Below are positions 10,014 to 40,070 of a stretch of DNA of 64,000 nt, in pieces. The notes beneath the pieces are model-generated. The model made no database searches. It saw only the letters and a program-made list of their open reading frames with translations, and was not told where the DNA came from. Source of the DNA: Escherichia coli (GTDB taxonomy: Bacteria > Pseudomonadota > Gammaproteobacteria > Enterobacterales > Enterobacteriaceae); the NCBI RefSeq assembly GCF_001677475.2, contig NZ_CP015229.1. One strand, 5' to 3'. Both the position numbers and the translations under genes were made by a program. Within the stretch, counting starts at the first letter, position 1, and the number at the start of each line of letters is the position of its first letter.

Positions 10014-10030
10014 CATTGGCGCAGAAAATA

Positions 10031-10056
10031 ATGCCGGATGCGACGCTGGCGCGTCT
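10031..10056. repeat. REP (repetitive extragenic palindromic) element
   Basis: atgccggatgcgacgctggcgcgtc matches the REP consensus core GCCGGATGCG. Confidence 0.6.
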
Positions 10057-10089
10057 GCTCCAGCTTACGCAGGCACGATAGGGGGCAGC

Positions 10090-14862: not shown

Positions 14863-18763
<3,901 letters not shown>

Positions 18764-19079: not shown

Positions 19080-19904
19080 TCAGCGCATTCCACCGTACGC
19101 CAGCGTCACTTCCTTCGCCGCTTTAATCACCATCGCGCCAAACTCGGTCACGCGGTCATCGGTAATACGTGAAATCGGTCCGGAAATAGAAATTGCGGCA
19201 AACGGTTCACGGTGCTCATCGAAAATACACGCTGCAAGGCAACGTAGCCCCAGCGCATGTTCCTCATCGTCAAATGAATAACCCCGTTTGCGCGTTTGGG
19301 CGAGATCTTCTTTTAAATGCACAGGAGACACCAGCGTTGCGTGGGTATAGGCATGTAACCCTTTGCGGTGCAGCAGCTTCGTCACCTGTTCTTCGCTCAG
19401 TTGGGCTAAAAAGGCTTTACCCGCACCGGAAGCGTGCATAGGTAATTTACCGCCGATAGGCGCGGACATTCGCATCAGGTGGGTACACTGTACCTGGTCG
19501 ATAATAATCGCTTCATGATCGCTTTGATCAAGCACCGCCATATTGACCGTTTCGCCAGACTCTTCCATTAGATTGCGCAGGATAGGGTGAACAATTGCTA
19601 ACAAATTACGGCTCTGGAGAAAGCTGCTGCCGACCATAAAGGCATGTGCGCCGATTGCCCAGTGTCCCAGTTCGCCAACCTGACGCACGAAACCCTGCTG
19701 TTGCATCGTGGTTAGCAGGCGGTGGGTCGTGGAATTGGGTAACCCGGCTTGTTGCGCCAGTTCCGTGAGTGCCACACTGCCATTGGATTCGGCAATCCAC
19801 TCCAGTAATTTCAGGCCACGCGTTAAAGACTGAACCTGTCCAGTTGCTGGTGCGGTGGCAACGGCGGGTTTTCTGCCGCGTTTCGCGGGAATGGGTGCGA
19901 CCAT
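19080..19904 (-). CDS. iclR: Glyoxylate-shunt transcriptional repressor IclR
   Basis: ORF 19080..19943; known protein begins at internal ATG (MVAPIPAKRGRKPA), giving 274 aa. Confidence 0.93.
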   Translation of the reverse strand: MVAPIPAKRGRKPAVATAPATGQVQSLTRGLKLLEWIAESNGSVALTELAQQAGLPNSTTHRLLTTMQQQGFVRQVGELGHWAIGAHAFMVGSSFLQSRNLLAIVHPILRNLMEESGETVNMAVLDQSDHEAIIIDQVQCTHLMRMSAPIGGKLPMHASGAGKAFLAQLSEEQVTKLLHRKGLHAYTHATLVSPVHLKEDLAQTRKRGYSFDDEEHALGLRCLAACIFDEHREPFAAISISGPISRITDDRVTEFGAMVIKAAKEVTLAYGGMR

Positions 19905-20103
19905 GACAGTCTCCTTTTTCTGTATCGTGGAAATCATTTTCATTTTTATTGTTAGCTAATGCAATAGTTGCTGAACTGATCCGATGAGTTAATGTTGAAC
20001 AAATCTCATGTTGCGTGGTGGTCGCTTTTACCACAGATGCGTTTATGCCAGTATGGTTTGTTGAATTTTTATTAAATCTGGGTTGAGCGTGTCGGGAGCA
20101 AGT

Positions 20104-23787
<3,684 letters not shown>

Positions 23788-23818
23788 TTCACAAATCTGT
23801 CACTTTTCCTTACAACAA

Positions 23819-23850
23819 ACAGGGCGCTCAATGAGTGCCCTGTCTCTTTA
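23819..23850 (+). terminator. Rho-independent terminator after metH
   Basis: agggcgctcaatgagtgccct hairpin followed by gtctctttatt. Confidence 0.6.
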
Positions 23851-24006
23851 TTAATATGAAACACTTATACTGGAAACAGGCTGGAATAATCTTAGCCGGA
23901 AAAACGAATGTCAAAAGGCACAGTAAAGATGCCAGTCAGCGTGTTTCCGGTCCTTTGGTCATTCAATTGCTTCAGGAACATATAACGATAAGGAGAACCT
24001 GAACTC

Positions 24007-25638
24007 GTGTTAACGCTGCTTCACCTGCTTTCTGCCGTCGCCCTGCTGGTCTGGGGGACTCATATTGTTCGAACCGGCGTAATGCGCGTCTTCGGCGCGC
24101 GTTTGCGTACTGTCCTTAGCCGGAGCGTCGAAAAAAAGCCGCTCGCCTTTTGCGCGGGGATCGGCGTTACCGCACTGGTGCAGAGCAGTAATGCCACCAC
24201 CATGCTGGTGACCTCGTTCGTCGCTCAGGATCTGGTAGCCCTCGCACCGGCTCTGGTGATTGTGCTGGGTGCAGATGTCGGGACGGCGCTAATGGCGCGT
24301 ATTCTCACCTTCGACTTATCCTGGCTGTCACCATTACTTATTTTTATCGGCGTGATTTTTTTCCTCGGACGCAAACAGTCACGCGCCGGGCAACTGGGCC
24401 GCGTCGGTATTGGTCTTGGGCTGATTTTACTGGCGCTGGAGTTGATTGTGCAGGCCGTAACGCCGATCACTCAGGCAAACGGCGTTCAGGTGATCTTTGC
24501 CTCGCTGACTGGCGACATTTTGCTGGATGCGCTGATTGGTGCGATGTTCGCCATTATCAGCTACTCCAGCCTTGCTGCTGTACTGCTGACCGCGACTTTG
24601 ACCGCCGCAGGCATTATCTCTTTCCCAGTGGCGCTTTGTCTGGTGATTGGGGCAAACCTCGGTTCCGGCCTGCTGGCGATGCTCAACAACAGTGCCGCCA
24701 ATGCCGCAGCCCGCCGTGTCGCGCTGGGTAGTCTGCTGTTTAAGCTGGTGGGTAGCCTGATTATCCTGCCGTTTGTCCATTTGCTGGCAGAGACAATGGG
24801 GAAGTTGTCATTGCCAAAAGCGGAACTGGTGATCTATTTCCACGTCTTCTACAACCTTGTACGTTGCCTGGTCATGCTGCCATTTGTTGACCCGATGGCA
24901 CGGTTTTGCAAAACGATTATTCGCGATGAACCGGAACTGGATACCCAGCTACGGCCTAAACATCTGGATGTCAGCGCGCTGGATACGCCCACGCTTGCTC
25001 TGGCGAACGCCGCGCGCGAAACCCTGCGCATTGGCGACGCCATGGAACAGATGATGGAAGGGTTGAATAAAGTGATGCACGGCGAGCCACGGCAGGAGAA
25101 AGAGCTGCGTAAGCTGGCAGATGATATCAACGTTCTCTATACCGCCATTAAGCTGTATCTGGCGCGGATGCCAAAAGAAGAGCTGGCGGAGGAAGAGTCG
25201 CGCCGCTGGGCGGAGATCATCGAAATGTCGCTCAACCTTGAACAGGCCTCCGATATCGTCGAGCGCATGGGGAGTGAAATTGCCGACAAATCACTGGCAG
25301 CACGGCGGGCATTTTCGCTTGATGGGTTGAAGGAACTGGATGCGCTCTATGAGCAATTGCTCAGTAATTTAAAGCTGGCAATGTCGGTGTTCTTCTCTGG
25401 CGATGTCACCAGCGCTCGTCGTTTGCGCCGCAGCAAGCATCGCTTTCGCATTCTTAATCGCCGCTATTCCCACGCCCACGTCGATCGCCTGCATCAGCAA
25501 AACGTGCAAAGCATTGAAACCAGTTCGCTACATTTAGGCTTACTGGGAGATATGCAGCGTCTGAACTCGCTGTTTTGTTCGGTGGCTTACAGTGTGCTGG
25601 AACAGCCGGATGAAGATGAAGGACGGGACGAGTATTAA
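24007..25638 (+). CDS. yjbB: Na+/phosphate cotransporter family protein YjbB
   Basis: 543-aa ORF with GTG start; multi-pass membrane N-terminus plus PhoU-like C-terminal region. Confidence 0.88.
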   Translation: MLTLLHLLSAVALLVWGTHIVRTGVMRVFGARLRTVLSRSVEKKPLAFCAGIGVTALVQSSNATTMLVTSFVAQDLVALAPALVIVLGADVGTALMARILTFDLSWLSPLLIFIGVIFFLGRKQSRAGQLGRVGIGLGLILLALELIVQAVTPITQANGVQVIFASLTGDILLDALIGAMFAIISYSSLAAVLLTATLTAAGIISFPVALCLVIGANLGSGLLAMLNNSAANAAARRVALGSLLFKLVGSLIILPFVHLLAETMGKLSLPKAELVIYFHVFYNLVRCLVMLPFVDPMARFCKTIIRDEPELDTQLRPKHLDVSALDTPTLALANAARETLRIGDAMEQMMEGLNKVMHGEPRQEKELRKLADDINVLYTAIKLYLARMPKEELAEEESRRWAEIIEMSLNLEQASDIVERMGSEIADKSLAARRAFSLDGLKELDALYEQLLSNLKLAMSVFFSGDVTSARRLRRSKHRFRILNRRYSHAHVDRLHQQNVQSIETSSLHLGLLGDMQRLNSLFCSVAYSVLEQPDEDEGRDEY

Positions 25639-25651
25639 TATTGTGAATCCT

Positions 25652-25725
25652 GTAGGCCTGATAAGACGCGTCAAGCGTCGCATCAGGCACTATGAACAAG
25701 ATGCCGGATCATGCATCCGGCAATT
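25652..25725. repeat. REP element plus perfect hairpin between convergent yjbB and pepE
   Basis: taggcctgataagacgcgtcaagcgtcgcatcaggc (REP) and gccggatcatgcatccggc (palindrome). Confidence 0.7.
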
Positions 25726-25728
25726 CAC

Positions 25729-26418
25729 TTAAAAACGGTGACCTGCTTCCAGCGGCACCGCTTCTTCACCAGCTTTAAACACATAAGTGGTGTTCGGGCC
25801 ACCCAGCGTAGCGTGACCTTTACTCACCGTGATCCAGTTACCTTCCGGTAGACCAATAATTGTGAGTTCTGGCGCGACGACCAGCAGTTCGCGAATACGC
25901 TGCTCACGGGTTTCACCTTTATGGCCTTCCGGCAGCGCGTTGGTGAAGTGCGGGTTGATTTGCAGCGGGAACAGATTCAGCGCATCGAAACCTTGCGGAT
26001 CGACAATCGGCATATCGTTGGTGGTACGAATGGTTGGGCAAGCAAGGTTAGCGCCTGCGCTCCAGCCAACATACAGCGCGCCACGTTTAACCACGTCAGT
26101 AATTGGTGCCAGCAGCCCGCGCTCGCGGCACTGTTTCAGCAACTGGAAAGTATTACCGCCGCCGACAATCACGATCTCAGCATTTTCAATCGCGGCAACG
26201 GGATCGACAACGCTATGAATACCGGTGACAGAAACACCCAGCGGAGCGAGAACCGCAGCCGTTTTCGCTGTGTAATCATCCCAGGTCTGCGTTACGCCCG
26301 CGAAAGGAATAAATACCGCTGAACGGCGACCCTGCAACTGTTCAGCAATTAGCGGCAGTGCATGTTCCAGCCAGGCTTTACCCGGCAGCGTCGAGTTACT
26401 CAATAAAAGCAGTTCCAT
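25729..26418 (-). CDS. pepE: Peptidase E (alpha-aspartyl dipeptidase)
   Basis: 229-aa ORF recognised as PepE. Confidence 0.93.
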
Positions 26419-26540
26419 TACTTCTCCGGTTAGTAAGAAATCACGGAAGGAATGCTACCACTGCGAATTTAACCACTTACTGACATGGCTCACGATGTCA
26501 CGTATTGCACCGGGCGCTGAGACTGATGACAAACACAGCA

Positions 26541-26642
26541 TTGCCTGATGCGCTACGCTTACCAGGCCTACCAGATAACTGCAATATATTGAATTTTCGA
26601 GATTATGTATGCCGAATAAGGCTTCATTCCGCATCCGGCATA
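26541..26642. repeat. Pair of REP elements (BIME-like) in the pepE-sorE junction
   Basis: ttgcctgatgcgctacgcttaccaggcctac and atgccgaataaggcttcattccgcatccggcat, both REP-type palindromic units. Confidence 0.7.
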
Positions 26643-26799
26643 AACAATGTGCACTTTGCCACCAATTTGAGCGCCCCTTAAGGCGCTGATGTTTTTTATC
26701 CTTCTCGTGCAAATTGTGCTGCTTCAGCAATCAGCCGCACATCAGGTCGCGAAGTTGCCGCGGCGACCAGCCAGCGACATGCAGAGTTAAGTAGCGCGA

Positions 26800-28029
26800 T
26801 TAATCATGGGAAATTGCCTCTGCATGGGCGAGCAGGTATTGCTCCGCCTCACCGGACCAGATCCCCTGATGACGCGCCAGAATCGCCGCCAGTGCTTGAT
26901 CCTGAATCTGCGTGAGTGACGTCAGCGGCAGGTATTTCCCGGTATACACCAGCTTTTTGCCGCCGCCGACGGCAGGCAATTCAAGCGTGGTTTCGCCCGC
27001 GGCATTCAGCCCAAGAATATGTGTTACCACTTTTGCGGCCTGCACTTTTTTCTCTTCAATCAATTTGACCGCTGCGCGCATGTCGTCGGTATTGCCGCCT
27101 GACGTGCCCACGTAGTGGGTAAATGCATAATGCACATCGTAGAAATTAATTGGCGCGCTGAAATGTTTATCCTGCGGTCCGGCGAAGAAATTCAGGCAAC
27201 CATCCGTCGCCAGCAAGGAAGAGGCGAGAGTCACCAGTCCTTCATTAGGCACAAAGACGAAAATATCATCGAAGCCGTGACCGCCACTCAGCGCCATTAA
27301 CGTATCAAATGCTGCATCGGTGGCATTGAGATAATGAATCAGTGTTTGCGGTTCTGATGGATAGTGCTTCCGCGCATAACTCAATTTATCGTTGTCGGTA
27401 TCGGTAATGACGAGCAGCGACGGGTTAACGGGTCCATGTAGCGCATAATCAATCGCCAACAGTCCCATTGGTCCGGTGCCGCCGAGGATCAGCGTGCGCC
27501 CTTGCGGGCGAATCCCCATCGTGTGGTTATAACTACCTTCCTGAAGATGATAGTTGGCGTTGAACGCGCCAATCACGCAGGAAAGCGGTTCAACCAGCGA
27601 GCCTTCAAAATAGGTTTCGCCGTCGTATGCCAGCAGGCAATCTTGTTCCATGACCTCGTTGGGAATAACTACATGCGTGGCTTCGCCGCCTACCCACGGG
27701 AAGGAGTAGCCGGGGCAGTCCGGGCGGTCGGGGAGTTGCAGGTTGGCCTGAATCACATAACGCTGACCCGGCTGGAATTTGTGCTGCCACTTTTTACCCA
27801 CGGCCAGAATATCGCCGCAAAACTCGTGGCCGATGATGATTGGGTTGGTCGCCACATCGTCGGGTACTTTTTTATGGTTTTCACCCAGATTGGCCTCTTT
27901 CCAGGAAGAGAGGCACAGGCTGTCAGTGACCACCGTCGCGAGGATTTCATCCTCCTGCATTTCAGGAAGATCAAAGGTTTCCAGGCGTAAATCACGTTTA
28001 CCATAAAGACGCAGAGCTGTTGTTTTCAT
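26800..28029 (-). CDS. sorE: L-sorbose-1-phosphate reductase (zinc-dependent alcohol dehydrogenase family)
   Basis: ORF 26800..28041; start set at second ATG (MKTTALRLYG), which has a GAGGTG Shine-Dalgarno; last gene of sor operon. Confidence 0.85.
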   Translation of the reverse strand: MKTTALRLYGKRDLRLETFDLPEMQEDEILATVVTDSLCLSSWKEANLGENHKKVPDDVATNPIIIGHEFCGDILAVGKKWQHKFQPGQRYVIQANLQLPDRPDCPGYSFPWVGGEATHVVIPNEVMEQDCLLAYDGETYFEGSLVEPLSCVIGAFNANYHLQEGSYNHTMGIRPQGRTLILGGTGPMGLLAIDYALHGPVNPSLLVITDTDNDKLSYARKHYPSEPQTLIHYLNATDAAFDTLMALSGGHGFDDIFVFVPNEGLVTLASSLLATDGCLNFFAGPQDKHFSAPINFYDVHYAFTHYVGTSGGNTDDMRAAVKLIEEKKVQAAKVVTHILGLNAAGETTLELPAVGGGKKLVYTGKYLPLTSLTQIQDQALAAILARHQGIWSGEAEQYLLAHAEAISHD

Positions 28030-28080
28030 AAACCACCTCATGTTGAGCTATGGCCCCGGCAGTCGTGCCGGGGCGAAGAA

Positions 28081-28905
28081 TCAGGACAGGAAGCCCAGCG
28101 CATTGCCGATAATCCCTAAGCCAAACAGGGCGAAAATCAGCCATACCGGGTTAATTTTTTTGTTAAGCAGACGAACCATCAGTAGCGTCAGACCGAGCGC
28201 CAGCAAACCAGGGCAAAGTTGGTCGAGAATGTTCTGCACGGTCATGGTGACGGTGGAGCCATCGGCGGCATGCGTTTGTGAAACCACCAACGGTACGTTG
28301 ATTGACGTCCATTTGGTGACCAGCACGCCCATCACAAACAGTCCGAGAATCGACGCGCCTTCGGTGAGTTTTTGCAGCACATTCCCGCCCATATCGCTGA
28401 CGATATTCACCCCTTTGCGAAAGCCGAGCTGTAGGCCATACCACTTCATCGCCAGACGCACCGCATTGAAAATAAAGAAAAACAAAAGCGGGCCGAGGAT
28501 GTTGCCCGAAAGTGCCAGAGATGCGCCGAGCGCAGCGGTAATCGGGCGCAGCGTTCCCCAGACCAGTGGATCGCCAACTCCTGCCAATGGTCCCATCAGA
28601 CCGACTTTGATGCCGTTAATGGTACCGTCATCAATTTCCGCGCCGTTGGCCCGCGCCTCTTCCATGGCGGCAGTGACGCCGATGACCGGGCCACATACGG
28701 CTGGCGTGGTATTGAAGAACACCAGGTGTCGCCTGAGCGCCGCAACCTGATCCTCTTTTAATGGGTAAAGTCGCTTGATGGCGGGGATCATGTCGTAGCA
28801 AAAAACCAGCCCGTGAATACGTTCAAAGTTAAAGGACGCCTGTTGCAGGTTGGAGCGCAGAAACATGCTCACCAGATCGCTGCGTGTAATTTTTCTCTGT
28901 TCCAT
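28081..28905 (-). CDS. sorM: PTS sorbose-specific EIID component (mannose family)
   Basis: ORF track begins at a TTG (28935); first ATG at 28905 (MEQRKITRSDL) has a GGAG Shine-Dalgarno and lies 10 nt after the sorA stop; ManZ-like membrane protein. Confidence 0.85.
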   Translation of the reverse strand: MEQRKITRSDLVSMFLRSNLQQASFNFERIHGLVFCYDMIPAIKRLYPLKEDQVAALRRHLVFFNTTPAVCGPVIGVTAAMEEARANGAEIDDGTINGIKVGLMGPLAGVGDPLVWGTLRPITAALGASLALSGNILGPLLFFFIFNAVRLAMKWYGLQLGFRKGVNIVSDMGGNVLQKLTEGASILGLFVMGVLVTKWTSINVPLVVSQTHAADGSTVTMTVQNILDQLCPGLLALGLTLLMVRLLNKKINPVWLIFALFGLGIIGNALGFLS

Positions 28906-28915
28906 GATGGCTCCG

Positions 28916-29713
28916 TTAATCGTCAAGTTGGTCAAGGGCGGTGGAGGCGGTGGCCTGGAGTTGAGGTTCAGCTTTACGCCACTGTGGATTTAGCTGGATG
29001 TAGACCAGGGCCATGATCACGCCGACGCCACCGAACGCCAGCAGACTGAGATCGAGGTAGCCACCTGCGAGGAAACCGAGGAAAAAGAAAGGCATCAAAT
29101 ATTTCACGCCCATCATACGTAGCACCATGGCGTAACCGACCACCACGATAAAACCGCCAGCAATTTGCAGACCTCGGGTCACAAATTCGGGAATGGCGTT
29201 TAACATATTGCTGACCATATCGGCGCTGACGAACAGCGAGACAATCAGTGCCGGAATGGCGACGCGCAGCGCCTGCACGCCAAGCGCGGAGACATGCAGA
29301 ATATCGAGAGTGCGAAACCGCGCCTCTTCTGCTGCTTTATCCGCCGCGTGCTGGAACACTACGGTGATGGTACGGGCAAACACAGTCAGCACCTGGCCTG
29401 CCGCAGCCACAGGCAACGCGATGGCGATTCCGGTGGCGATGCTTTGCTGACCAACGATAACCAGAATGGCGGAGATTATGCTGGCGAGTGCAGAATCTGG
29501 AGATTGCGCCGCGCCGACGTTCATCCAGCCGAGAGCTATCAATTCCAGCGTACCGCCGAGTATTATTCCGGTTTTTAAATCACCGAGAATTAAACCAATC
29601 ACCGTACAGGCAATTAACGGGCGATGAGTCTGAAATTCATCCAGCACGCTGCCCATTCCGGCAATACAGGAAAAAAGAAATATAGCAATAATTTGTAGGG
29701 TACTTATTTCCAT
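28916..29713 (-). CDS. sorA: PTS sorbose-specific EIIC component (mannose family)
   Basis: 265-aa polytopic membrane ORF, ManY-like. Confidence 0.88.
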   Translation of the reverse strand: MEISTLQIIAIFLFSCIAGMGSVLDEFQTHRPLIACTVIGLILGDLKTGIILGGTLELIALGWMNVGAAQSPDSALASIISAILVIVGQQSIATGIAIALPVAAAGQVLTVFARTITVVFQHAADKAAEEARFRTLDILHVSALGVQALRVAIPALIVSLFVSADMVSNMLNAIPEFVTRGLQIAGGFIVVVGYAMVLRMMGVKYLMPFFFLGFLAGGYLDLSLLAFGGVGVIMALVYIQLNPQWRKAEPQLQATASTALDQLDD

Positions 29714-29778
29714 GATTTGTCACCTTTTAAGTGTCGTCATCCCTGCCTGTTAAAGCATATGTACACAGGCGCTATTAT

Positions 29779-30273
29779 TTAATTTGCGATTAACTGTTCG
29801 TTTATTTTGTCGATAATATTGATTGAGGGATCTGACGCTACGACGCGTAAATCCAGTATGACGCCAAGATTATTTAACTCATGAAATGCGTTAATATCAT
29901 CATCATCTAATGAAACCGCTTTGGTTAACTGTTTTTTACCGGGCCGCCAGGCCATGCCGCCAATATTCAGGGTGTCTATTTTTACCCCCTGGCGAACCAT
30001 CGCTAAGGCATCCTGTGGGCGAGTGAAAAGATAAAAAACGGTTTCGTCCTGATATTGCGGGTTGTGATAAACCGCGACGGCTTTTTCAATATTGACCACG
30101 TTAACCTTCATTCCCGGTGGCGCAGCCTGACGCAATAATGTCCGGCGCACTTCATCGTTATAAACTTCGTCATTGCAGATAATAATGCGCTGGGCGTTAG
30201 CCACTTTCGACCAGACGGTAGTGACCTGGCCGTGGATCAGGCGGTCATCAATGCGGGCGAGCGTAATGTTCAT
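29779..30273 (-). CDS. sorB: PTS sorbose-specific EIIB component (mannose family)
   Basis: 164-aa ORF with N-terminal LARIDDRLIHGQV motif (phosphorylatable His of mannose-family EIIB). Confidence 0.88.
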   Translation of the reverse strand: MNITLARIDDRLIHGQVTTVWSKVANAQRIIICNDEVYNDEVRRTLLRQAAPPGMKVNVVNIEKAVAVYHNPQYQDETVFYLFTRPQDALAMVRQGVKIDTLNIGGMAWRPGKKQLTKAVSLDDDDINAFHELNNLGVILDLRVVASDPSINIIDKINEQLIAN

Positions 30274-30680
30274 CAGAAATCCTCCTCTGCTGTTGCCACC
30301 TGTCTCCAGACGACGCAGGTTTGCTTTGCGATTTGCGTCAGGTGTTCACACAGTTCATCAACATTCATGCTGTCCTGGTTATCAACCAGTTCGAGCGCCA
30401 GCGGCAGAGAAAGGCCGCTGATTACCCGCAGACGAGGATTGCGCATCGCAAGCATCGCTGCCGCATTCCACGGGCTGCCGCACTGTAAATCCACGGCGAT
30501 TAGCCACTCGTCATGATTGTGAATGCTCACTAACTTCTCCAGCTTTGCCACAATGTCTCCGGCGTTCTCGCCGGGCACAAATTCAACGGCTTCAACATTG
30601 GCGTTGCCGTAAACCATCTGAACCGATTCCAGCATGGCGCAAGCTAATTTGCCGTGGGCACAAAAAATGGCGTTGACCAT
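30273..30680 (-). CDS. sorF: PTS sorbose-specific EIIA component (mannose family)
   Basis: 135-aa ORF, mannose-family EIIA-like (MVNAIFCAHGKLA); stop overlaps the sorB start. Confidence 0.85.
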   Translation of the reverse strand: MVNAIFCAHGKLACAMLESVQMVYGNANVEAVEFVPGENAGDIVAKLEKLVSIHNHDEWLIAVDLQCGSPWNAAAMLAMRNPRLRVISGLSLPLALELVDNQDSMNVDELCEHLTQIAKQTCVVWRQVATAEEDF

Positions 30681-30689
30681 AAAGCCTCC

Positions 30690-31496
30690 TTATCCGCGTG
30701 TTTTGCCGCCCGCAATGTTAGTGGTTACTCCGGTGATGTAGCTGGCGCGTTCAGACAGCAGATAACAAACAAAATCAGCGACTTCTGCTAATCTTCCGGC
30801 GCGCCCAATAGGAATGGCGTTTTTGGTATAGCCTTCACGCAGCTGCTCGACGGTGATATTGCGCGTCCACGCCAGCGCTTCTTCATATTCCGGCGTGCGC
30901 AGTCCTGTTTTTTCCAGAATCCCCGGCGCGATACCGACCACACGGATACCGTGCTTACCCAGCTCTTTCGACCAGGAACGAGTGAAGCTATTGAGCGCAG
31001 CTTTAGTGGCGGCGTAGCAGCTCTGGCCTTCTGAGCCTTCCAGCCCACTTTCTGAGGAAACATTCACAATCACGCCATCGTGTTGTTTGACCATCTGTCG
31101 CGCCACCGCCTGCGACATCAGAAAAACGCCTTTCTGGTTGATATTGACCATTTTTTCGAATGCAGCTTCGTTGAGTTCATACTGCCCGGCAGGCGCTTTC
31201 TCATCGACCAGCAGACGCGGGAAATTGACCCCGGCGTTATTGACCAGACCGTCGATGCGATCAAAACGCTGGATAATTTCCGCTACCGTATGATTTACCT
31301 CTTTGGCGCTGGAAATATCGGTCGGCCAAAACTGATAGCCTTTATGACCTTCATATTGTCCATCGCCACCGTGAATATCGACCATCTGTACATTCGCGCC
31401 TTGTGCTAATAATTCCTCTACAATCGCCAGACCAATACCGGATGCGCCGCCGGTGACGATAATGATTTTATCCTGCAAATTTAACCACGTTTGCAT
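30690..31496 (-). CDS. sorD: Sorbitol-6-phosphate (D-glucitol-6-P) dehydrogenase, short-chain dehydrogenase/reductase
   Basis: 268-aa ORF with TGGASGIG Rossmann motif and YxxxK catalytic motif. Confidence 0.85.
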   Translation of the reverse strand: MQTWLNLQDKIIIVTGGASGIGLAIVEELLAQGANVQMVDIHGGDGQYEGHKGYQFWPTDISSAKEVNHTVAEIIQRFDRIDGLVNNAGVNFPRLLVDEKAPAGQYELNEAAFEKMVNINQKGVFLMSQAVARQMVKQHDGVIVNVSSESGLEGSEGQSCYAATKAALNSFTRSWSKELGKHGIRVVGIAPGILEKTGLRTPEYEEALAWTRNITVEQLREGYTKNAIPIGRAGRLAEVADFVCYLLSERASYITGVTTNIAGGKTRG

Positions 31497-31565
31497 AACA
31501 GACTCCTGATTTTAGATAATAGGGACCCGCCGTAATTTTTATTACGGTAAACATCGGGAAGATTT

Positions 31566-32516
31566 TTATTTCAGTAATAGTTCAGCTGTGCTGCTATTCG
31601 TTACCAGACAATTAATATATTTTCCACGCAGTGCACCAACAATTCCGCTGTATTTTTCTTCACTCATGGCAATGCCAATGGAATATCGTGCCTGCTTTAA
31701 TTTATTCATTTCGATAGAGAGTGTTTTTTCGCTCATATTCGTTTCAACCATTGCGCCGTGAATATCAAAAAAGCGCGAGCAAATATCGCCAGCAACCTGG
31801 CGGGCATTCAGGTCGTCACTCTCTTCACCACCATAAAACGCATGCCAGTTAGCGCCGTCGCGAATGGCCGGTGAGCCAATTCCCACCAGGGCGACATCCA
31901 GATTATCCCAGTAGGCAGAGATGGTTTTAAAGTGCTGAGACTGCATGATCCCATTACGAATTAATGGGTTATCCAGCAGAGCCGGAAAATCCGCGAGATG
32001 CGATTCCCCTTTCAGCTTCGCTGCCGCGCTGTAGGTTAATGTGTTTACATGATAGCGGCTTTCGAGTTTACCGGACGGTCCGCCAATAATTGGTACGCAG
32101 ATTAACTGCCGCGATTGCCCCGCCTGCGGTAAGTTTTCAACCAGTGCGCTCACCGCGCGACCCCAGGAAAAACCGACAATATCGCCAGGCTCCAGCAAGC
32201 GATCCAGCAGTTGCGCGCCGTGTAACCCCATCATCGCCAGTTGAGTCTCTTCATCCTCATCATTTCCCGACACCACCACAACGTCTTTCAGGCCAAACTT
32301 TTGCTTCAGTTGCTGCTCCAGCCAGAGATTTTCGTTGTAGTCATAGTTGATGGCGATGGTGACAATTCCCTGATCGCGGCCTCGTTTAAGCAAGCGGCTG
32401 ATGGTGGTGCGGTAAATACCCAGTTCGCGCGCAATTTGCGCCTGCGTCATATCCTGTTCGTAATAGAGTTGGGCAATCTTCACAATCAAACGGATATCGT
32501 CACTGTTTTCCATTGC
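31566..32516 (-). CDS. sorC: SorC-family transcriptional regulator of the sorbose operon
   Basis: ORF 31566..32597; start set at internal ATG (MENSDDIRLIVKIAQLYY), preceded by an AGGAGG Shine-Dalgarno; N-terminal HTH plus sugar-binding domain. Confidence 0.85.
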   Translation of the reverse strand, partial: AMENSDDIRLIVKIAQLYYEQDMTQAQIARELGIYRTTISRLLKRGRDQGIVTIAINYDYNENLWLEQQLKQKFGLKDVVVVSGNDEDEETQLAMMGLHGAQLLDRLLEPGDIVGFSWGRAVSALVENLPQAGQSRQLICVPIIGGPSGKLESRYHVNTLTYSAAAKLKGESHLADFPALLDNPLIRNGIMQSQHFKTISAYWDNLDVALVGIGSPAIRDGANWHAFYGGEESDDLNARQVAGDICSRFFDIHGAMVETNMSEKTLSIEMNKLKQARYSIGIAMSEEKYSGIVGALRGKYINCLVTNSSTAELLLK

Positions 32517-32529
32517 CGCCTCCTGGTTC

Positions 32530-32543
32530 TGCACATTTGTGCA
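32530..32543. promoter_or_regulatory. Palindromic operator-like site in the sorC 5' leader
   Basis: tgcacatttgtgca, a perfect 6-bp inverted repeat around a central tt, just upstream of the sorC ribosome-binding site; related copy tgcacatttgt at 32642-32652. Confidence 0.4.
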
Positions 32544-32860
32544 AATACGCTTTCTCACCGCTTGATCTGATATAACCCCATCATGATGGCCTTTCAAAGC
32601 GATTTTTCACTCTTTGCATGGGGAGAAATAGCGCTTTCTCTTGCACATTTGTTTCTCTGCGTAGTAGTCATCAGCACAGGTGTGCAGCGATTCGTAATAT
32701 GTTGATTATCTTTATTTTGCCAGGCAAATTTGCATCGTACTTCCGGAGACACTTTTGTGATAAAAGGCGTGGCAGATCACATTTAATTTCGACGTTGCCG
32801 CATAACCCTGTTTTTCCCCGCTAAGAGGTACGGTATATTCCGCGTTTTACAGGAGAATTT

Positions 32861-33733
32861 ATGCTGCCCGACTCATCAGTCCGTTTAAATAAATACATCA
32901 GCGAAAGCGGAATTTGCTCACGCCGCGAAGCGGATCGCTATATCGAGCAAGGCAATGTGTTCCTTAATGGCAAGCGAGCCACCATTGGCGATCAGGTGAA
33001 ACCCGGCGACGTTGTGAAAGTAAACGGTCAGTTGATTGAGCCTCGGGAAGCCGAAGATTTGGTACTTATCGCCCTGAACAAGCCCGTCGGTATTGTCAGC
33101 ACCACCGAAGATGGCGAGCGCGATAACATTGTCGATTTCGTTAACCACAGCAAACGCGTGTTCCCGATTGGCCGCCTGGATAAAGACTCCCAGGGGCTGA
33201 TTTTCCTCACCAATCACGGCGATCTGGTGAATAAGATCCTCCGTGCGGGTAACGATCATGAGAAAGAGTATCTGGTGACGGTCGATAAACCGATTACCGA
33301 TGAATTTATTCGTGGTATGGGGGCGGGGGTGCCAATCCTCGGGACAGTGACTAAAAAGTGTAAAGTCAAAAAAGAAGCGCCGTTTGTCTTCCGCATTACC
33401 CTGGTGCAGGGGCTGAACCGTCAGATCCGTCGCATGTGCGAACACTTTGGTTACGAAGTGAAAAAGCTGGAACGTACGCGCATTATGAACGTCAGTTTAA
33501 GCGGCATTCCACTGGGTGAGTGGCGCGATTTAACTGACGATGAGTTAATCGACCTGTTTAAACTCATCGAAAATTCCTCTTCCGAGGCAAAACCTAAAGC
33601 GAAGGCCAAGCCGAAAACGGTAGGCATCAAACGTCCAGTCGTTAAGATGGAAAAAACGGCGGAAAAAGGCGGTCGCCCGGCAACCAACGGTAAGCGTTTT
33701 ACCTCGCCGGGGCGTAAAAAGAAGGGGCGCTGA
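32861..33733 (+). CDS. rluF: 23S rRNA pseudouridine synthase F
   Basis: 290-aa ORF with S4 domain and RluA/RsuA-type catalytic region (RLDKDSQGL); lysine-rich C-terminal tail. Confidence 0.92.
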
Positions 33734-33865
33734 TTAACGCCTCAGACTGATGAAAACGTCCAAAAAGTGCTCGGACAGTCCCCTCGCCCCTTCGGGGAGA
33801 GGGTTAGGGTGAGGGGAAGATTGTGTCCACACAGACGAGTGAAAATCTCAGGCGTTGATTGTTCA

Positions 33866-34138
33866 TTAGCGCCTGCCGCGCGTCGACGTATTTGCTGACC
33901 AGCTAAATGACGCTTCAGGATCCGGTTTATAAGCCTGCTTTTTCTTCAATTGGCGGGCTTTTTTCGCTTCAGCCTCACGCTCGACCATTAATTTATCGAT
34001 GTACTCTTTCTTAATGCTGTTGGTTTCGGAGTTGGTCAGTACGCGACCATGCGCAATCCGCGCCCGATCCAGCAGTGTTTTAAGTTCACGCTGCTCGCGT
34101 TCAGTCATCTCTTTTTGGGTAATACGCGGGAGTGCCAT
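33866..34138 (-). CDS. yjbD: Uncharacterised small protein YjbD
   Basis: 90-aa ORF between rluF and lysC, as in K-12. Confidence 0.8.
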   Translation of the reverse strand: MALPRITQKEMTEREQRELKTLLDRARIAHGRVLTNSETNSIKKEYIDKLMVEREAEAKKARQLKKKQAYKPDPEASFSWSANTSTRGRR

Positions 34139-34390
34139 GATGTTGCCCTCAGTGAGCCAGAGAGTTCAGTGTACGGGAATTCGTTTGCGAGCAGAACTGA
34201 TAATATTCATTTTGCCTTCTCTTAACTATTTATCTCTTTCGATAATTAATTAGAGATGCAGATAAAAAAATTAAAGGCAATTATTCTCCGATAAAGACGC
34301 TGGTTAACAGAGTACAGGCTCGTTTATTGATGAGCATAGTGACAAGAAAATCAATACGGCCCGAAATATAGCTTCCAGGCCATACAGTAT

Positions 34391-35740
34391 TTACTCAAAC
34401 AAATTAAAATGCAGCTTCTGCACCACCTGCTCGGCATCTTCGCCGGGCACCAGGAAGCACAGGTTATGGCTGGATGCGCCGTAACAAATCATGCGAATGT
34501 TGAACGGTTCCAGTACGCCGAATACCTCTTTGCCAACGCCGCAGGCTTTTGACAGGTCATTGCCAATCAACGCGACCAGTGCCAGACCTTCTTCCACCTC
34601 CACCCGGCACAGTGCGGAAAGCTCCATCAGCAGAGATTGCGTCAGCAACGTATCGCCAGTGGAGGTTGAACCGGTGGTATCAAGGGTTAATGCCACGCTC
34701 ACTTCTGACGTGGTGATTAAGTCTACCGAAATATTATGCCGCGCGAGGATGCCGAAAACTTCTGCGAGGAAGCCGCGAGAATGCAGCATATTCAGGCTGT
34801 GCAAAGTGAGCAGAGTCTGATTGCGACGAAGCGCCAGCGCGCGGAACAGCGGCGGATTTTCAGTTTTATTGCACACCAGCGTACCACCTGCGCGTGGGTC
34901 TTTGCTGGAGCCGACAAAGACCGGGATATCGCTGCGTACTGCGGGTAGCAACGTTGCCGGATGCAGTACTTTTGCACCAAAAGTTGCCATCTCTGCCGCT
35001 TCGGCAAACGCGATTTCATCAATGCGTTTTGCTGCGGAAACTACGCGTGGATCGGTGGTGTAGATGCCCGGGACGTCGGTCCAGATATCAACACGAGATG
35101 CGTGTAAAGCCTCCGCCAGCAAGGCTGCCGTATAATCGCTGCCGCCACGGCCAAGCGTCGTTGTACGACCTTTATTTTCGCTACCGATAAATCCCTGGGT
35201 GATCACTAAGCCTTCATTGAGGCGTGGGAGCAGCTGCAGAGCGGCCAGTTCCGCCAGCGCGGCTACATCTGGCTCTGCACGACCAAATCGGTCGTTGGTA
35301 CGCATCACTTTACGTACATCAAACCACTGTGCCTGAACATCGCGTTCGCGCAGGATCTCAACAAACAGCAGGGTCGACATCAGCTCGCCGTGGCTGACCA
35401 GTTCATCTGTCAGCGCCGGAGACGTTGCCAGCGCCGCTGCTTCTGCCAGAACAGTAATGTTCTCCAGCAGACGTTCAATCTCTTCACGGATAACGTTCGG
35501 GTAACGCAGACGTTCCAGAATGGCAAACTGGATGTTGCGGATAGCGTCGAGTTTTTCGAATCGCTCGCCAGGTTCCAGCCCTTCCGCTAAAGCGACCAGC
35601 AGATTAGTGATACCAGCAGAAGCCGAGAGGACTACTAAACGCACGTTGGCATCAGAAAGCACAATATCAGCGCTGCGGTTCATGGCGTCAAAATCAGCTA
35701 CGCTGGTACCGCCAAATTTGGAGACAACAATTTCAGACAT
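34391..35740 (-). CDS. lysC: Lysine-sensitive aspartokinase III
   Basis: 449-aa ORF recognised as LysC (amino-acid kinase domain plus ACT domains). Confidence 0.95.
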   Translation of the reverse strand: MSEIVVSKFGGTSVADFDAMNRSADIVLSDANVRLVVLSASAGITNLLVALAEGLEPGERFEKLDAIRNIQFAILERLRYPNVIREEIERLLENITVLAEAAALATSPALTDELVSHGELMSTLLFVEILRERDVQAQWFDVRKVMRTNDRFGRAEPDVAALAELAALQLLPRLNEGLVITQGFIGSENKGRTTTLGRGGSDYTAALLAEALHASRVDIWTDVPGIYTTDPRVVSAAKRIDEIAFAEAAEMATFGAKVLHPATLLPAVRSDIPVFVGSSKDPRAGGTLVCNKTENPPLFRALALRRNQTLLTLHSLNMLHSRGFLAEVFGILARHNISVDLITTSEVSVALTLDTTGSTSTGDTLLTQSLLMELSALCRVEVEEGLALVALIGNDLSKACGVGKEVFGVLEPFNIRMICYGASSHNLCFLVPGEDAEQVVQKLHFNLFE

Positions 35741-36050
35741 AACTACCTCGTGTCAGGGGATCCATTTTCAGCCTTGGCACAAGGGAAGAGCGGAAGACGG
35801 GTGGGCGCAGAGCGATACTTCGCTACTATTTTCACCCAGAAGTGCTCCACCACTTGCGAAACGCCCGACTGCGAACGCTTCTGGTGACAACCCAGGGGAT
35901 TCAGCCCCTGTAGCCGATGATGAACGTGGCCAGCCGTTCAATCACCTCGGCGATGCACCCCCTCAGGTGTTATCACAGGACTGGCTCCTCCAACACCGTT
36001 ACTTGGGCAACGCGCCTCTTCTGGCCTGCGCTAGCGCAGGTAGTACATTT
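35741..36050 (-). ncRNA. Lysine riboswitch (L-box) in the lysC 5' leader
   Basis: Roughly 300-nt untranslated leader upstream of lysC, whose reverse complement matches the known E. coli lysC leader; boundaries approximate. Confidence 0.8.
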
Positions 36051-36264
36051 ATAAATAAAGGGTGAGCGGGGCGGTTGTCAACGATGGGGTCATGCGGATT
36101 TTTCATCCACTCCTGGCGGTCAGTAGTTCAGCTAATAAATGCTTCACTGCGCTAAGGGTTTACACTCAACATTACGCTAACGGCACTAAAACCATCACAT
36201 TTTTCTGTGACTGGCGCTACAATCTTCCAAAGTCACAATTCTCAAAATCAGAAGAGTATTGCTA

Positions 36265-37914
36265 ATGAAAAACATCAATCCAACGCAGACCGCTGCCTGG
36301 CAGGCACTACAGAAACACTTCGATGAAATGAAAGACGTTACGATCGCCGATCTTTTTGCTAAAGACGGCGATCGTTTTTCTAAGTTCTCCGCAACATTCG
36401 ACGATCAGATGCTGGTGGATTACTCCAAAAACCGCATCACTGAAGAGACGCTGGCGAAATTACAGGATCTGGCGAAAGAGTGCGATCTGGCGGGCGCGAT
36501 TAAGTCGATGTTCTCTGGCGAGAAGATCAACCGCACTGAAAACCGCGCCGTGCTGCACGTAGCGCTGCGTAATCGTAGCAATACCCCGATTCTGGTTGAT
36601 GGCAAAGACGTAATGCCAGAAGTCAACGCGGTGCTGGAGAAGATGAAAACCTTCTCGGAAGCGATTATTTCCGGTGAGTGGAAAGGTTATACCGGCAAAG
36701 CAATCACTGACGTAGTGAACATCGGGATCGGCGGTTCTGACCTCGGCCCATACATGGTGACCGAAGCACTGCGTCCGTACAAAAATCACCTGAACATGCA
36801 CTTTGTTTCTAACGTCGATGGCACCCACATCGCGGAAGTGCTGAAAAAAGTAAACCCGGAAACCACGCTGTTCCTGGTAGCATCTAAAACCTTCACCACT
36901 CAGGAAACCATGACCAACGCCCATAGTGCGCGTGACTGGTTCCTGAAAGCGGCAGGTGATGAAAAACACGTTGCGAAACATTTTGCGGCGCTCTCCACCA
37001 ATGCCAAAGCCGTTGGCGAGTTTGGTATTGATACTGCCAACATGTTCGAGTTCTGGGACTGGGTCGGCGGCCGTTACTCTTTGTGGTCAGCGATTGGCCT
37101 GTCGATTGTTCTCTCCATCGGCTTTGATAACTTCGTTGAACTGCTTTCTGGCGCACACGCGATGGACAAGCATTTCTCCACCACGCCTGCCGAGAAAAAC
37201 CTGCCTGTCCTGCTGGCGCTGATTGGCATCTGGTACAACAATTTCTTTGGCGCGGAAACTGAAGCGATTCTGCCGTATGACCAGTATATGCACCGTTTCG
37301 CGGCGTACTTCCAGCAGGGCAATATGGAGTCTAATGGTAAGTATGTTGACCGTAACGGTAACGTCGTGGATTACCAGACTGGTCCGATTATCTGGGGTGA
37401 ACCAGGTACTAACGGTCAGCACGCGTTCTACCAGCTGATCCACCAGGGAACTAAAATGGTACCGTGCGATTTCATCGCCCCGGCTATCACCCATAACCCG
37501 CTCTCTGATCACCACCAGAAACTGCTGTCTAACTTCTTTGCTCAGACCGAAGCGCTGGCGTTTGGTAAATCCCGCGAAGTGGTTGAGCAGGAATATCGCG
37601 ATCAGGGTAAAGATCCGGCAACGCTTGACTATGTAGTGCCGTTTAAAGTGTTCGAAGGTAACCGCCCGACCAACTCCATCCTGCTGCGCGAAATCACCCC
37701 GTTCAGCCTGGGGGCGTTGATTGCGCTGTATGAGCACAAAATCTTTACTCAGGGCGTGATCCTGAACATCTTCACCTTCGACCAGTGGGGCGTTGAGCTG
37801 GGTAAACAGCTGGCGAACCGTATTCTGCCGGAACTGAAAGATGACAAAGAAATCAGCAGCCACGATAGCTCGACCAATGGTCTGATTAACCGCTATAAAG
37901 CGTGGCGCGGTTAA
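36265..37914 (+). CDS. pgi: Glucose-6-phosphate isomerase
   Basis: ORF 36259..37914 begins at a TTG; first ATG at 36265 ([13 protein letters not shown]) gives 549 aa. Confidence 0.95.
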
Positions 37915-37934
37915 TTTAAAAACCTTAATAACAA

Positions 37935-37960
37935 TGCCGACGTTATGTCGGCATTTTTTT
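37935..37960 (+). terminator. Rho-independent terminator after pgi
   Basis: tgccgacgttatgtcggca hairpin followed by ttttttt. Confidence 0.85.
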
Positions 37961-38268
37961 ATCAGATAAATCCCCTTGTCTGTGATTTAACGGAAATCAT
38001 ACCGTGAGGTTAATCCTAAAATAGATTTTTAATCGTTGTTTATTTCGGAAAATACGCAGATTAATTACTTTTGTTTTTATTTTAAGTTTATGATTTTTAT
38101 TGTTATTTAAATATAAGTTGAAACTTATATTTGATATTCATTCCAATTATCCTAAAACGCCATCGCTAATTCCCCGCGCCGTAATTCGCATGCTTTAGTT
38201 GTGTATACTCGATCCCGCCCGAAATGTTTTTGGGTAAATCTCCATTCATTCAATGAAGGGAAATTGTT

Positions 38269-38511
38269 ATGAAAAAAGTTCTGTATGGCATTTTTGCCAT
38301 ATCTGCGCTTGCGGCGACTTCTGCGTGGGCTGCACCTGTACAGGTGGGCGAAGCGGCAGGGTCGGCAGCAACGTCGGTTTCGGCGGGTAGTTCCTCCGCG
38401 ACCAGCGTCAGCACCGTAAGCTCGGCGGTGGGTGTCGCGCTCGCGGCAACCGGTGGCGGTGATGGTTCTAATACCGGGACCACAACAACCACAACCACCA
38501 GTACCCAGTAA
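38269..38511 (+). CDS. yjbE: Small secreted low-complexity protein YjbE
   Basis: 80-aa ORF with signal peptide and Ser/Ala/Thr-rich tail ending in a poly-Thr run; first gene of yjbEFGH. Confidence 0.85.
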
Positions 38512-38697
38512 TAAAGTATGTATCCCCAAAATAATTCGAGTTGCAGGAAGGCGACAAGCGAGTGAGTCCCCGGGAGCATAGATAACTATGTGACCGGGGT
38601 GAACGAGTGCGGTCACCGCATCTGCAGCTTGAAGTATGAAGGGGATTAACCATAACCACACTCCGGTGTGGTTATTCTGCCCCTCTGGAGAAGAGTC

Positions 38698-39333
38698 GTG
38701 AAGCGACCTGCACTCATTCTTATCTGTCTGCTATTACAGGCCTGTTCAGCCACGACTAAAGAGCTGGGCAATTCACTGTGGGACAGTCTGTTCGGCACGC
38801 CAGGCGTACAGCTGACGGATGATGATATTCAAAATATGCCCTACGCCAGCCAGTACATGCAGCTTAATGGCGGGCCGCAATTGTTTGTGGTGCTGGCCTT
38901 CGCTGAAGACGGACAACAAAAATGGGTCACTCAGGATCAGGCCACTCTCGTCACACAACATGGTCGTCTGGTGAAGACTTTGCTTGGTGGCGACAACCTG
39001 ATTGAAGTGAATAACCTTGCCACTGACCCGCTGATTAAACCCGCACAAATTGTTGATGGTGCAACATGGACGCGCACGATGGGCTGGACCGAGTACCAGC
39101 AGGTACGCTACGCCACCGCACGCTCAGTCTTCAAATGGGATGGCACCGATACCGTCAAAGTCGGCAGCGATGAAACCCCGGTTCGCGTGCTGGACGAAGA
39201 AGTCTCCACCGACCAGGCGCGCTGGCATAACCGCTATTGGATCGACAGCGAAGGGCAAATTCGCCAGTCGGAACAGTATCTCGGCGCGGATTATTTCCCG
39301 GTGAAAACCACTCTCATCAAGGCGGCAAAATAA
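38698..39333 (+). CDS. yjbF: Lipoprotein YjbF
   Basis: ORF 38668..39333; likely GTG start at 38698 preceded by GGAG; lipobox LLQAC. Confidence 0.8.
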   Translation: MKRPALILICLLLQACSATTKELGNSLWDSLFGTPGVQLTDDDIQNMPYASQYMQLNGGPQLFVVLAFAEDGQQKWVTQDQATLVTQHGRLVKTLLGGDNLIEVNNLATDPLIKPAQIVDGATWTRTMGWTEYQQVRYATARSVFKWDGTDTVKVGSDETPVRVLDEEVSTDQARWHNRYWIDSEGQIRQSEQYLGADYFPVKTTLIKAAK

Positions 39334-40070
39334 TGATTAAACAAACTATTGTCGCGTTGCTTTTGAGTGTGGGAGCGTCATCGGTCTTCGCGGCAGGAAC
39401 CGTCAAGGTGTTCAGCAATGGCAGCAGTGAGGCCAAAACGCTAACGGGCGCAGAGCATTTAATCGATCTGGTAGGCCAACCGCGGCTGGCAAACAGCTGG
39501 TGGCCTGGTGCGGTGATTAGCGAAGAGCTGGCAACGGCGGCAGCATTGCGTCAGCAGCAGGCGTTGCTGACACGGCTGGCAGAACAGGGCGCAGATTCCA
39601 GCGCCGACGATGCCGCTGCGATTAACGCCTTACGCCAGCAAATTCAGGCGTTGAAAGTGACGGGCAGGCAAAAAATCAATTTTGATCCCGATATCGTCCG
39701 CGTTGCCGAACGCGGTAACCCGCCGTTGCAGGGCAACTACACGCTGTGGGTCGGACCACCGCCGTCCACGGTCACGCTGTTCGGGCTTATCAGCCGTCCT
39801 GGCAAGCAGTCATTCACTCCAGGTCGCGACGTGGCGAGCTATCTCTCTGACCAGAGCCTGCTCAGCGGTGCGGATCGCAGCTACGCATGGGTGGTTTACC
39901 CGGACGGACGCACGCAAAAAGCGCCGGTGGCTTACTGGAACAAGCGTCACGTAGAGCCGATGCCCGGCAGCATTATTTATGTTGGCCTCGCGGACTCCGT
40001 CTGGAGTGAGACGCCTGATGCCCTTAACGCCGACATTCTTCAGACTCTGACGCAGCGGATACCTCAATAA
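39333..40070 (+). CDS. yjbG: Periplasmic protein YjbG
   Basis: ORF 39237..40070; start at internal ATG ([20 protein letters not shown]) overlapping the yjbF stop in a TAATG junction; 245 aa with signal peptide. Confidence 0.85.

Follow-up and report, generated by a model that had tools for sequence, protein, structure and literature searches.

The question raised by the interval between the core genes pepE and rluF of Escherichia coli is whether the block of genes that fills it in some strains, and that is missing from K-12, is an L-sorbose (sor) operon, whether it is a mobile insertion or ancestral at this site, and whether it is still intact. We addressed the question in a 64,000-nucleotide stretch of E. 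coli DNA (assembly GCF_001677475.2, contig NZ_CP015229.1), called the window below, whose positions are counted from its first letter. An earlier note, made from the letters of the window, had placed an accessory L-sorbose phosphotransferase system (PTS) operon at 26419-32860 and regarded it as a known strain-variable metabolic island. Our analyses make it very probable that the locus is the chromosomal E. coli operon sorCDFBAME, complete and apparently functional, and that it is ancestral at the rluF-pepE position and not a mobile insertion, K-12 carrying an empty replacement allele. The operon itself is already known: its mapping, sequencing, cloning and functional testing are on record, and a published account covers how it is distributed among E. 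coli phylogroups. Cloning of the locus reportedly dates from 1992, its re-verification from 2010 and its functional dissection from 2025-2026, and the sor operon of Klebsiella pneumoniae is said to have been treated by Wehmeier and Lengeler in 1994.

Analysis of the open reading frame (ORF) list, with start codons placed as RefSeq annotates them for this locus in E. coli LR-45 and O157:H7, indicated that the pepE-rluF interval holds seven intact ORFs, all on the minus strand, at 26800-32513 and with intergenic gaps of -1 to 69 bp. In the order of transcription these are sorC (31566-32513; 315 aa), coding for a SorC-family regulator with a helix-turn-helix (HTH) and a sugar-binding domain; sorD (30690-31496; 268 aa), for a D-glucitol-6-phosphate dehydrogenase of the short-chain dehydrogenase type; sorF (30273-30680; 135 aa), sorB (29779-30273; 164 aa), sorA (28916-29713; 265 aa) and sorM (28081-28905; 274 aa), for the PTS enzymes II EIIA (mannose family), EIIB (sorbose subfamily), EIIC and EIID, respectively; and sorE (26800-28029; 409 aa), for an L-sorbose-1-phosphate reductase of the medium-chain zinc dehydrogenase family. 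The flanking core genes are pepE (25729-26418, minus strand; NF003642, 356 bits; 100% identical to K-12 PepE) and rluF (32861-33733, plus strand; NF007784, 606 bits). Local blastn between the 64-kb window and the corresponding 68 kb of K-12 showed that 26500-32825 is missing from K-12, where the pepE-rluF gap measures 211 bp, and that this is the sole multi-gene difference between the two; the window is collinear with the K-12 order aceBAK-iclR-metH-yjbB-pepE ... rluF-yjbD-lysC, the operon lying near metH/iclR between pepE and rluF. The earlier note was thus right that seven co-directional genes fill a gap that is short in K-12, and that they form the only multi-gene accessory block of the window; its coordinates hold for the whole intergenic gap, whereas the segment that varies between strains is narrower, at about 26515-32814.

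Family assignments based on NCBIfam and Pfam profiles agreed with the gene identities proposed in that note. SorC matched PF04198 with 270 bits, at residues 86-343 of the long ORF, and, in Pfam, HTH models at 39-80, and an AGGAGG ribosome-binding site lies 5-10 nt 5' of its ATG at 32513. SorD matched NCBIfam NF004817 'sorbitol-6-phosphate dehydrogenase subunit' (499 bits, cut-off 304), SorF the EIIA-man family (TIGR00824, 148 bits; PF03610), SorB PF03830 (PTSIIB_sorb, 176 bits), SorA TIGR00822 for EII-Sor (424 bits) and PF03609, SorM TIGR00828 (EIID-AGA, 467 bits) and PF03613, and SorE the Pfam families ADH_N and ADH_zinc_N; all four subunit families of a mannose-family PTS (EIIA, EIIB, EIIC and EIID) are represented in the locus. 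Read from the sequence, SorF keeps His9 in its N-terminal AHG motif and SorB keeps His14 in the motif RIDDRLIHGQ, residues that we take, from knowledge of the mannose-family PTS, to be the phosphorylation sites. All seven proteins match public E. coli records exactly, under names that include 'PTS sorbose transporter subunit IIA' (SorF), 'PTS system sorbose-specific IIB component' and, for SorE, 'L-sorbose 1-phosphate reductase'; the gene for SorE is annotated as sorE in RefSeq at the same locus.

Comparison with K. pneumoniae reference proteins was made for SorC and SorB. SorC is identical at 274 of 315 positions (87%) to K. pneumoniae SorC (PDB 2W48; PMC11229326), the alignment being full-length, collinear and worth 612 bits, and SorB is identical at 139 of 160 positions (87%) to K. 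pneumoniae IIB-Sor (PDB 1NRZ). The other five proteins, compared with other Klebsiella species only, showed 77-96% identity. The gene order, which had been equated with that of the Klebsiella and E. coli sor operon, was recovered as C-D-F-B-A-M-E by tblastn in about 30 enterobacterial loci. Assignment of the locus to the enterobacterial L-sorbose operon sorCDFBAME is supported at every point that could be tested, and the sequence-level orthology to the Sor proteins is decisive.

It is most improbable that the genes encode a mannose-family PTS for another sugar (mannose, fructose or a hexosamine) and owe the 'sor' label to mere annotation transfer. Such a reading draws on the profile libraries, which name the four PTS subunits only to the level of a 'mannose/fructose/sorbose family', and on the generic RefSeq product names of SorA, SorB, SorF and SorM; however, SorB scored 304 bits against IIB-Sor, 171 bits against IIB-Man and 143 bits against a fructose permease, and together with the SorC match this places the best solved-structure matches among Sor proteins and not among paralogues, as the earlier note had expected. 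The transporter genes are moreover linked to sorE and sorD, which jointly define a route from sorbose-1-phosphate through glucitol-6-phosphate to fructose-6-phosphate. The orthologous fragment of strain CFT073 gives growth on L-sorbose (PMC2831201), and deletion of sorE abolishes the growth benefit from sorbose (PMC12817954).

How the L-sorbose operon would work can be outlined in steps drawn from established Klebsiella and E. coli pathway knowledge. The phosphoryl group would pass from phosphoenolpyruvate through enzyme I and HPr to His9 of SorF (EIIA) and His14 of SorB (EIIB), and L-sorbose would enter via the SorA/SorM membrane pair and be released inside as L-sorbose-1-phosphate. SorE would reduce this to D-glucitol-6-phosphate, which SorD would oxidise to D-fructose-6-phosphate for entry into glycolysis. 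SorC would act as a repressor without sorbose and as an activator with it, presumably via conserved GCAC-N4-GTGC palindromes of the sorC-rluF spacer. L-sorbose induction via SorC, as both activator and repressor, is attributed to Woehrl et al. 1990, as cited in PMC12817954, and for the K. pneumoniae operon the works cited in PMC2831201 and PMC12817954 are Sprenger and Lengeler 1984 and Woehrl, Wehmeier and Lengeler 1990.

The E. coli operon has itself been examined. That of CFT073 (c4981-c4987), cloned with two primers, let DH5alpha grow on L-sorbose, and the CFT073 Sor proteins are 82-97% similar to those of Klebsiella (PMC2831201); the cloning primers match the window at 26770-26799 (30/30) and at 32832-32859 (one indel). 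In a 2025 study sorbose induced the operon, the growth benefit was lost on deletion of sorE, and a knock-in strain gained it (PMC12817954), while a 2026 study tied sorD to fitness and virulence (PMC13410766).

To place the operon among relatives, one genome per species was scanned with SorE and then searched by tblastn with all window proteins. Genes in the order sorCDFBAME, with rluF on one side and pepE (or yjbB) on the other, were found in Escherichia whittamii, E. albertii, a further two Escherichia lineages, Pseudocitrobacter, Cedecea, at least seven Citrobacter, five Klebsiella species, Raoultella and an Enterobacter sp., the same position beside rluF being occupied in at least six other genera. 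Sor protein identity ranged from 74 to 99% in the five Klebsiella species, Raoultella, Citrobacter and others; in K. grimontii the Sor proteins are 79-95% identical to those of the window and the flanking gene products 89-93%, and across relatives the divergence of the Sor proteins is similar to that of the flanking genes. The G+C content of the operon is 0.512, against 0.509 for the window. No tRNA gene was found in 20000-40000, no integrase or transposase gene in the flanks, which are collinear core genes, and no flanking direct repeats around the operon; the first reading of the window had likewise seen no integrase, transposase or tRNA beside it. Judged by these sequence features and by its constant position among relatives, the locus does not qualify as a horizontally acquired genomic island.

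Among 5426 complete E. coli genomes the operon (at least 80% of the query covered) is present in 2865, always chromosomal and in single copy, and a K-12-type empty junction is present in 2557, of which 2542 are at least 99% identical; the E. coli sor locus is essentially two-state, with either the operon or one near-invariant empty allele. The locus is known and strain-variable, as first described, but the word 'island' does not suit an operon that is syntenic in at least six other genera. Since the synteny extends to these genera, the best reading is that the operon is ancestral at rluF-pepE in the Enterobacteriaceae, that K-12 carries a deletion-replacement allele, and that a single loss allele has spread in E. 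coli. That the operon has been reported as scarce in phylogroups A and B1 (PMC12817954) agrees with an ancestral operon and a single loss allele that spread.

The converse history, in which the operon is an acquired island inserted between pepE and rluF and K-12 retains the ancestral empty site, is very unlikely. It would account for an operon that occurs in only about half of the E. coli genomes, and the pepE-rluF interval does turn over, since sor-negative relatives are empty or hold other cargo: pepE adjoins rluF in Citrobacter koseri, and C. rodentium, a Salmonella-like genome and an Enterobacter-labelled genome contain unrelated small cargo there. Over the 20 nt that lie upstream of the -10 box of rluF, K-12 is also nearer to other genera than the E. 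coli sor+ allele is, and the unusual closeness of the Pseudocitrobacter Sor, RluF and YjbD proteins to those of E. coli (93-99%, against 86% for PepE) indicates that the region can recombine. Yet an insertion confined to E. coli does not explain why the operon lies at the same rluF-adjacent position in E. whittamii, E. albertii, Klebsiella, Raoultella, Citrobacter, Cedecea and Enterobacter sp., with a divergence that matches the flanks, nor why the sorC-rluF spacer stays at 347-349 bp in most such genera. It would also have left neither integrase, tRNA nor flanking direct repeat and no deviation in G+C, and the 2557 empty sites constitute one near-identical allele, a pattern more easily reconciled with one recent loss than with an ancestral state of long standing.

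Several side observations concern the distribution of the locus. In Pseudocitrobacter the YjbD, RluF and Sor proteins are 93-99% identical to those of the window, PepE only 85-86% and LysC 90-91%, which suggests that a yjbD-rluF-sor segment was exchanged by recombination between Escherichia and Pseudocitrobacter. The K-12 empty allele has CCAGAAGCAATG in common with the allele of E. coli IMT16316 and not with that of the window; this hints at the kind of sor+ allele that may have given rise to the empty allele. Enterococcus crotali and E. ureilyticus have the same order sorCDFBAME, and Gilliamella has sorFBAME followed by a sorC-like gene. The GenBank record labelled 'Escherichia coli' SCPM-O-B-8794, which stands for a species in the genome collection, shares only about 91% identity with the window over the locus and is probably a member of a cryptic Escherichia clade.

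With regard to intactness, the seven sor genes contain no internal stops and their lengths equal those in RefSeq. Alignment of each Sor protein with 31-38 orthologues from many genera revealed that the window departs at two of the 1213 columns that are invariant among the orthologues, SorD G79D and SorM G34V, where the glycine is invariant in 34 and 38 orthologues, respectively; SorC, SorF, SorB, SorA (206 such columns) and SorE show no change at any. Both variant alleles are natural; exactly these alleles occur on 46 (SorD) and 34 (SorM) public contigs. The operon DNA of the window is 97-98.9% identical to that of the 2865 complete E. coli genomes, being at least 1.1% diverged from every complete RefSeq genome, whereas the draft E. 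coli assembly GCA_033753315.1 is 100% identical to the window over 22081-34905 (12,825 bp). Since this identity extends over 12.8 kb, the window derives from a real E. coli lineage that is scarce among complete genomes. The possibility that the window had been artificially altered, raised by the ceiling of 98.9% identity to complete E. coli genomes, was rejected on the grounds of this draft assembly and of the exact occurrence of all proteins in public records. Over the segments 14900-24000, 25400-34200 and 26500-32825 the best complete RefSeq E. coli genome (n=5426) reached only 98.2-98.9% identity; YjbB, PepE and LysC of the window are 100% identical to those of K-12 despite the diverged DNA.

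Functional impairment of the operon in the window lineage, as an early stage of decay after the loss of an eighth gene, sdhL, is unlikely, although less so than the two alternatives considered above. The two replaced glycines are compatible with it, as are the remnant state of sdhL, which carries a premature stop, and the disappearance of the whole operon from half of the species. All seven frames are nevertheless intact, five Sor proteins are unchanged at invariant positions and the two variants have been retained, on 34-46 public contigs; strains that grow on sorbose have this sdhL remnant too, and the growth-conferring CFT073 fragment stops 30 nt past sorE.

Other points weigh against a complete, functional and ancestral operon and are set beside it here. 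The profile matches of SorE are only weak and to general medium-chain dehydrogenase families, and NCBIfam holds no SorE-specific model, so that the name SorE rests on orthology and annotation. A consensus sigma-70 scan matched no promoter in the sorC-rluF spacer, and the proposed sorC promoter may for that reason be weak or activator-dependent. SorD G79D or SorM G34V could weaken its own protein; srlD and other PTS permeases could compensate, and a sorAM deletion strain still grew on sorbose (PMC12817954). Finally, the empty allele of K-12 carries about 64 bp of filler in place of the operon, and comparison with the sor+ locus, with about 85 fetched loci and with four sor-negative relatives gave no match to it; because its source was not found, the K-12 'deletion' is strictly a deletion-replacement.

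The side of the locus between sorE and pepE, which the earlier note had described by its repetitive extragenic palindromic (REP) elements, does contain these, but a gene remnant between sorE and the REPs had been missed. This 112-bp remnant of the shikimate-dehydrogenase-like eighth gene sdhL lies at 26696-26807 on the minus strand; what is left of the gene is codons 1-21, of which codon 7 is TAA, together with its final 17 codons. Alignment with the intact genes of IMT16316 and E. whittamii revealed an internal deletion of about 701 bp with its junction near 26749/26750, and the intact 270-aa SdhL of E. whittamii matched the window by tblastn at 26807-26745 and 26749-26699. The intact gene (270 aa; NCBIfam NF009202 'shikimate 5-dehydrogenase', 462 bits) comes after sorE and overlaps it by 8 nt (ATGATTAA) in nearly all of the other enterobacterial sor loci sampled, and it is found in 177 of 5426 E. 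coli genomes, for example in IMT16316, which we take to be sequence type (ST) 648; LR-45 and O157:H7 have the same remnant as the window. One study mentions sdhL as confined to ST648, where it is sorbose-induced (PMC12817954). The comparison of loci suggests that sdhL is ancestral and was lost in most E. coli, and that it is not a lineage-specific insertion. Since the growth-conferring CFT073 fragment ends 30 nt beyond sorE, sdhL is dispensable for sorbose use by E. coli. With slightly less than even confidence we propose that the sor operon ancestrally had eight genes, that about 94% of sor+ E. coli carry the remnant left by the 701-bp deletion and that, if so, SdhL may act on an unrecognised side substrate of the pathway; as a separate point, the GCAC-N4-GTGC palindromes would constitute the SorC operator.

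A G+C-rich hairpin at 26670-26687, minus strand, lies 8 nt after the stop codon of the sdhL remnant; the terminator scan calls it on the plus strand, the T-run being on that side. It is likely to be the terminator of the operon, serving, as we infer, minus-strand transcripts. Between this hairpin and the pepE promoter region lies an inverted, bacterial interspersed mosaic element (BIME)-like REP pair at 26543-26567 (plus) and 26611-26639 (minus), with the pattern GCC(G/T)GATG...CTTATC(A/C)GGC, an imperfect palindrome of about 30 nt. A search for this pattern with loose spacing gave nine copies in the window, against 0-1 in shuffles, while a fixed-spacing consensus, whose spacing was wrong, matched nothing. 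The pair is present in E. whittamii and not in E. coli IMT16316, in which the intact sdhL is found without the REP pair and without half of the terminator hairpin, the distance from sdhL to pepE being only 122 bp. In the sor+ strain E. coli EE72d an IS3-like transposase of the IS1397 family is inserted within the locus. IS1397 targets BIME repeats, and the REP pair at 26543-26639 is a plausible target of the EE72d insertion.

The divergent control region between sorC and rluF occupies 347 bp (32514-32860), and a spacer of 347-349 bp was measured in 11 of 15 rluF-adjacent loci. When 15 sequences from upstream of sorC were aligned, including four from genera in which rluF is not the neighbour, a series of conserved blocks emerged. 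From sorC outwards these are the palindrome TGCACAaaTGTGCA (32530-32543), which has the ribosome-binding site on one side and a conserved TATATC box on the other; the -10-like TATATC itself (32569-32574); a -35-like TTGAAA (32592-32597); the half-site ACAAATGTGCAA (32641-32652); the palindrome GCACAggTGTGC, also given as GCACAnnnGTGC (32674-32685); the block CACAAAAGTG (32749-32761); and the CRP-like half-site AAATGTGATC (32766-32784). Two of the three GCAC-N4-GTGC matches of the 64-kb window fall within this spacer, and they are invariant across genera. We infer that these palindromes are candidate SorC operators; from its position the proximal one would block transcription, and those upstream would activate it, an arrangement that would fit the tetrameric binding of the SorC family (PMC11229326). 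Promoter positions were assigned from conserved blocks only, with predicted functions for the blocks, and two candidates emerge, the proximal TTGAAA-17-TATATC and TGCAAA-18-GATAAT at 32705-32734; over the whole region the consensus sigma-70 scan gave fewer promoter-like sites than in shuffles. In the CRP-like site only the left half is strong, and its location at about -212 from the proximal promoter is too distant for a standard activation position; it may belong to either sor or rluF. Rfam gave no match in the locus, its lysC riboswitch match lying outside.

The edges of the strain-variable segment were defined by alignments. At the left edge (26500-26514) K-12 homology stops in alignments of the window, K-12, IMT16316 and E. 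whittamii, the pepE upstream region at 26419-26499 being common to the window and K-12. At the right, a boundary zone at 32815-32846 contains an rluF core promoter-like block (T-run ... GGTATATT) that is present in sor+ alleles, sor- alleles and all genera examined, and blastn similarity with K-12 resumes at 32826. Beyond rluF, a 132-bp insert separates rluF from yjbD (33734-33865), with terminal inverted repeats of about 11 bp (AACGCCTCAGA...TCTCAGGCGTT) and, at its centre, a G/C-rich hairpin (CCCCTCGCCCCTTCGGGGAGAGGG); the insert is found in the window, K-12 and LR-45 and not in O157:H7 or IMT16316, where yjbD abuts rluF, and it looks like a small repeat of the miniature inverted-repeat transposable element type. 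The second gene-sized difference from K-12 in the window is the absence of yjaA: at 9835-10094, downstream of the 5S rRNA gene, the window has about 260 bp, which we recognise as the rrnB T1/T2 terminator region, where K-12 has 520 bp including yjaA. The gene yjaA is a marker in Clermont phylogroup typing.

As regards its significance, the operon bears on fitness and competition and is enriched among lineages that are extraintestinal pathogens (PMC12817954, PMC13410766), and its intact presence helps to type the window strain as lying outside the sor-poor phylogroups A and B1. To this picture, which is unchanged overall, the present analysis makes incremental additions, namely the ancestral status with a single loss allele, the decayed eighth gene sdhL, a motif conserved across genera that is a candidate SorC operator, and two substitutions at invariant glycines.

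Among known systems the K. pneumoniae sor operon has the same seven genes in the same order and orientation as the window, with SorC and SorB each 87% identical (2W48, 1NRZ), and the five Klebsiella species compared share this order next to rluF. Klebsiella-group loci differ in having an intact sdhL-like gene after sorE with the 8-nt overlap, whereas the window has the 112-bp remnant only; the published seven-gene name sorCDFBAME omits this gene. The E. coli sor operons of CFT073 (PMC2831201), of ST131 and ST648 (PMC12817954) and of mcr-1-positive E. coli (PMC13410766) represent the same locus, with the same flanks and genes as the window, whose allele differs from them by SorD G79D and SorM G34V and, unlike ST648, lacks an intact sdhL.

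The mannose-family PTS ManXYZ of E. coli (TC 4.A.6) shows the same IIA/IIB/IIC/IID architecture and Pfam families, and there is overlap between the profiles of SorA and SorM and the IIC and IID models for mannose. ManXYZ, however, has a fused IIAB, whereas IIA and IIB of the sor operon are separate proteins and SorB is clearly nearer to IIB-Sor than to IIB-Man; a further difference is the linkage of the sor transporter to a SorC-type regulator and two dedicated dehydrogenases. Bacillus subtilis DeoR and CggR share with SorC a family defined by an HTH and a sugar-binding fold (PMC11229326; DeoR 8R7Y, E 4e-40). Solved DNA complexes exist for DeoR and CggR, while the GCAC-N4-GTGC operator of SorC is a candidate from phylogenetic footprinting only. 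Regulators of the SorC family bind as tetramers to paired operator repeats (PMC11229326), and the spaced palindromes upstream of sorC would fit such binding, as in DeoR and CggR.

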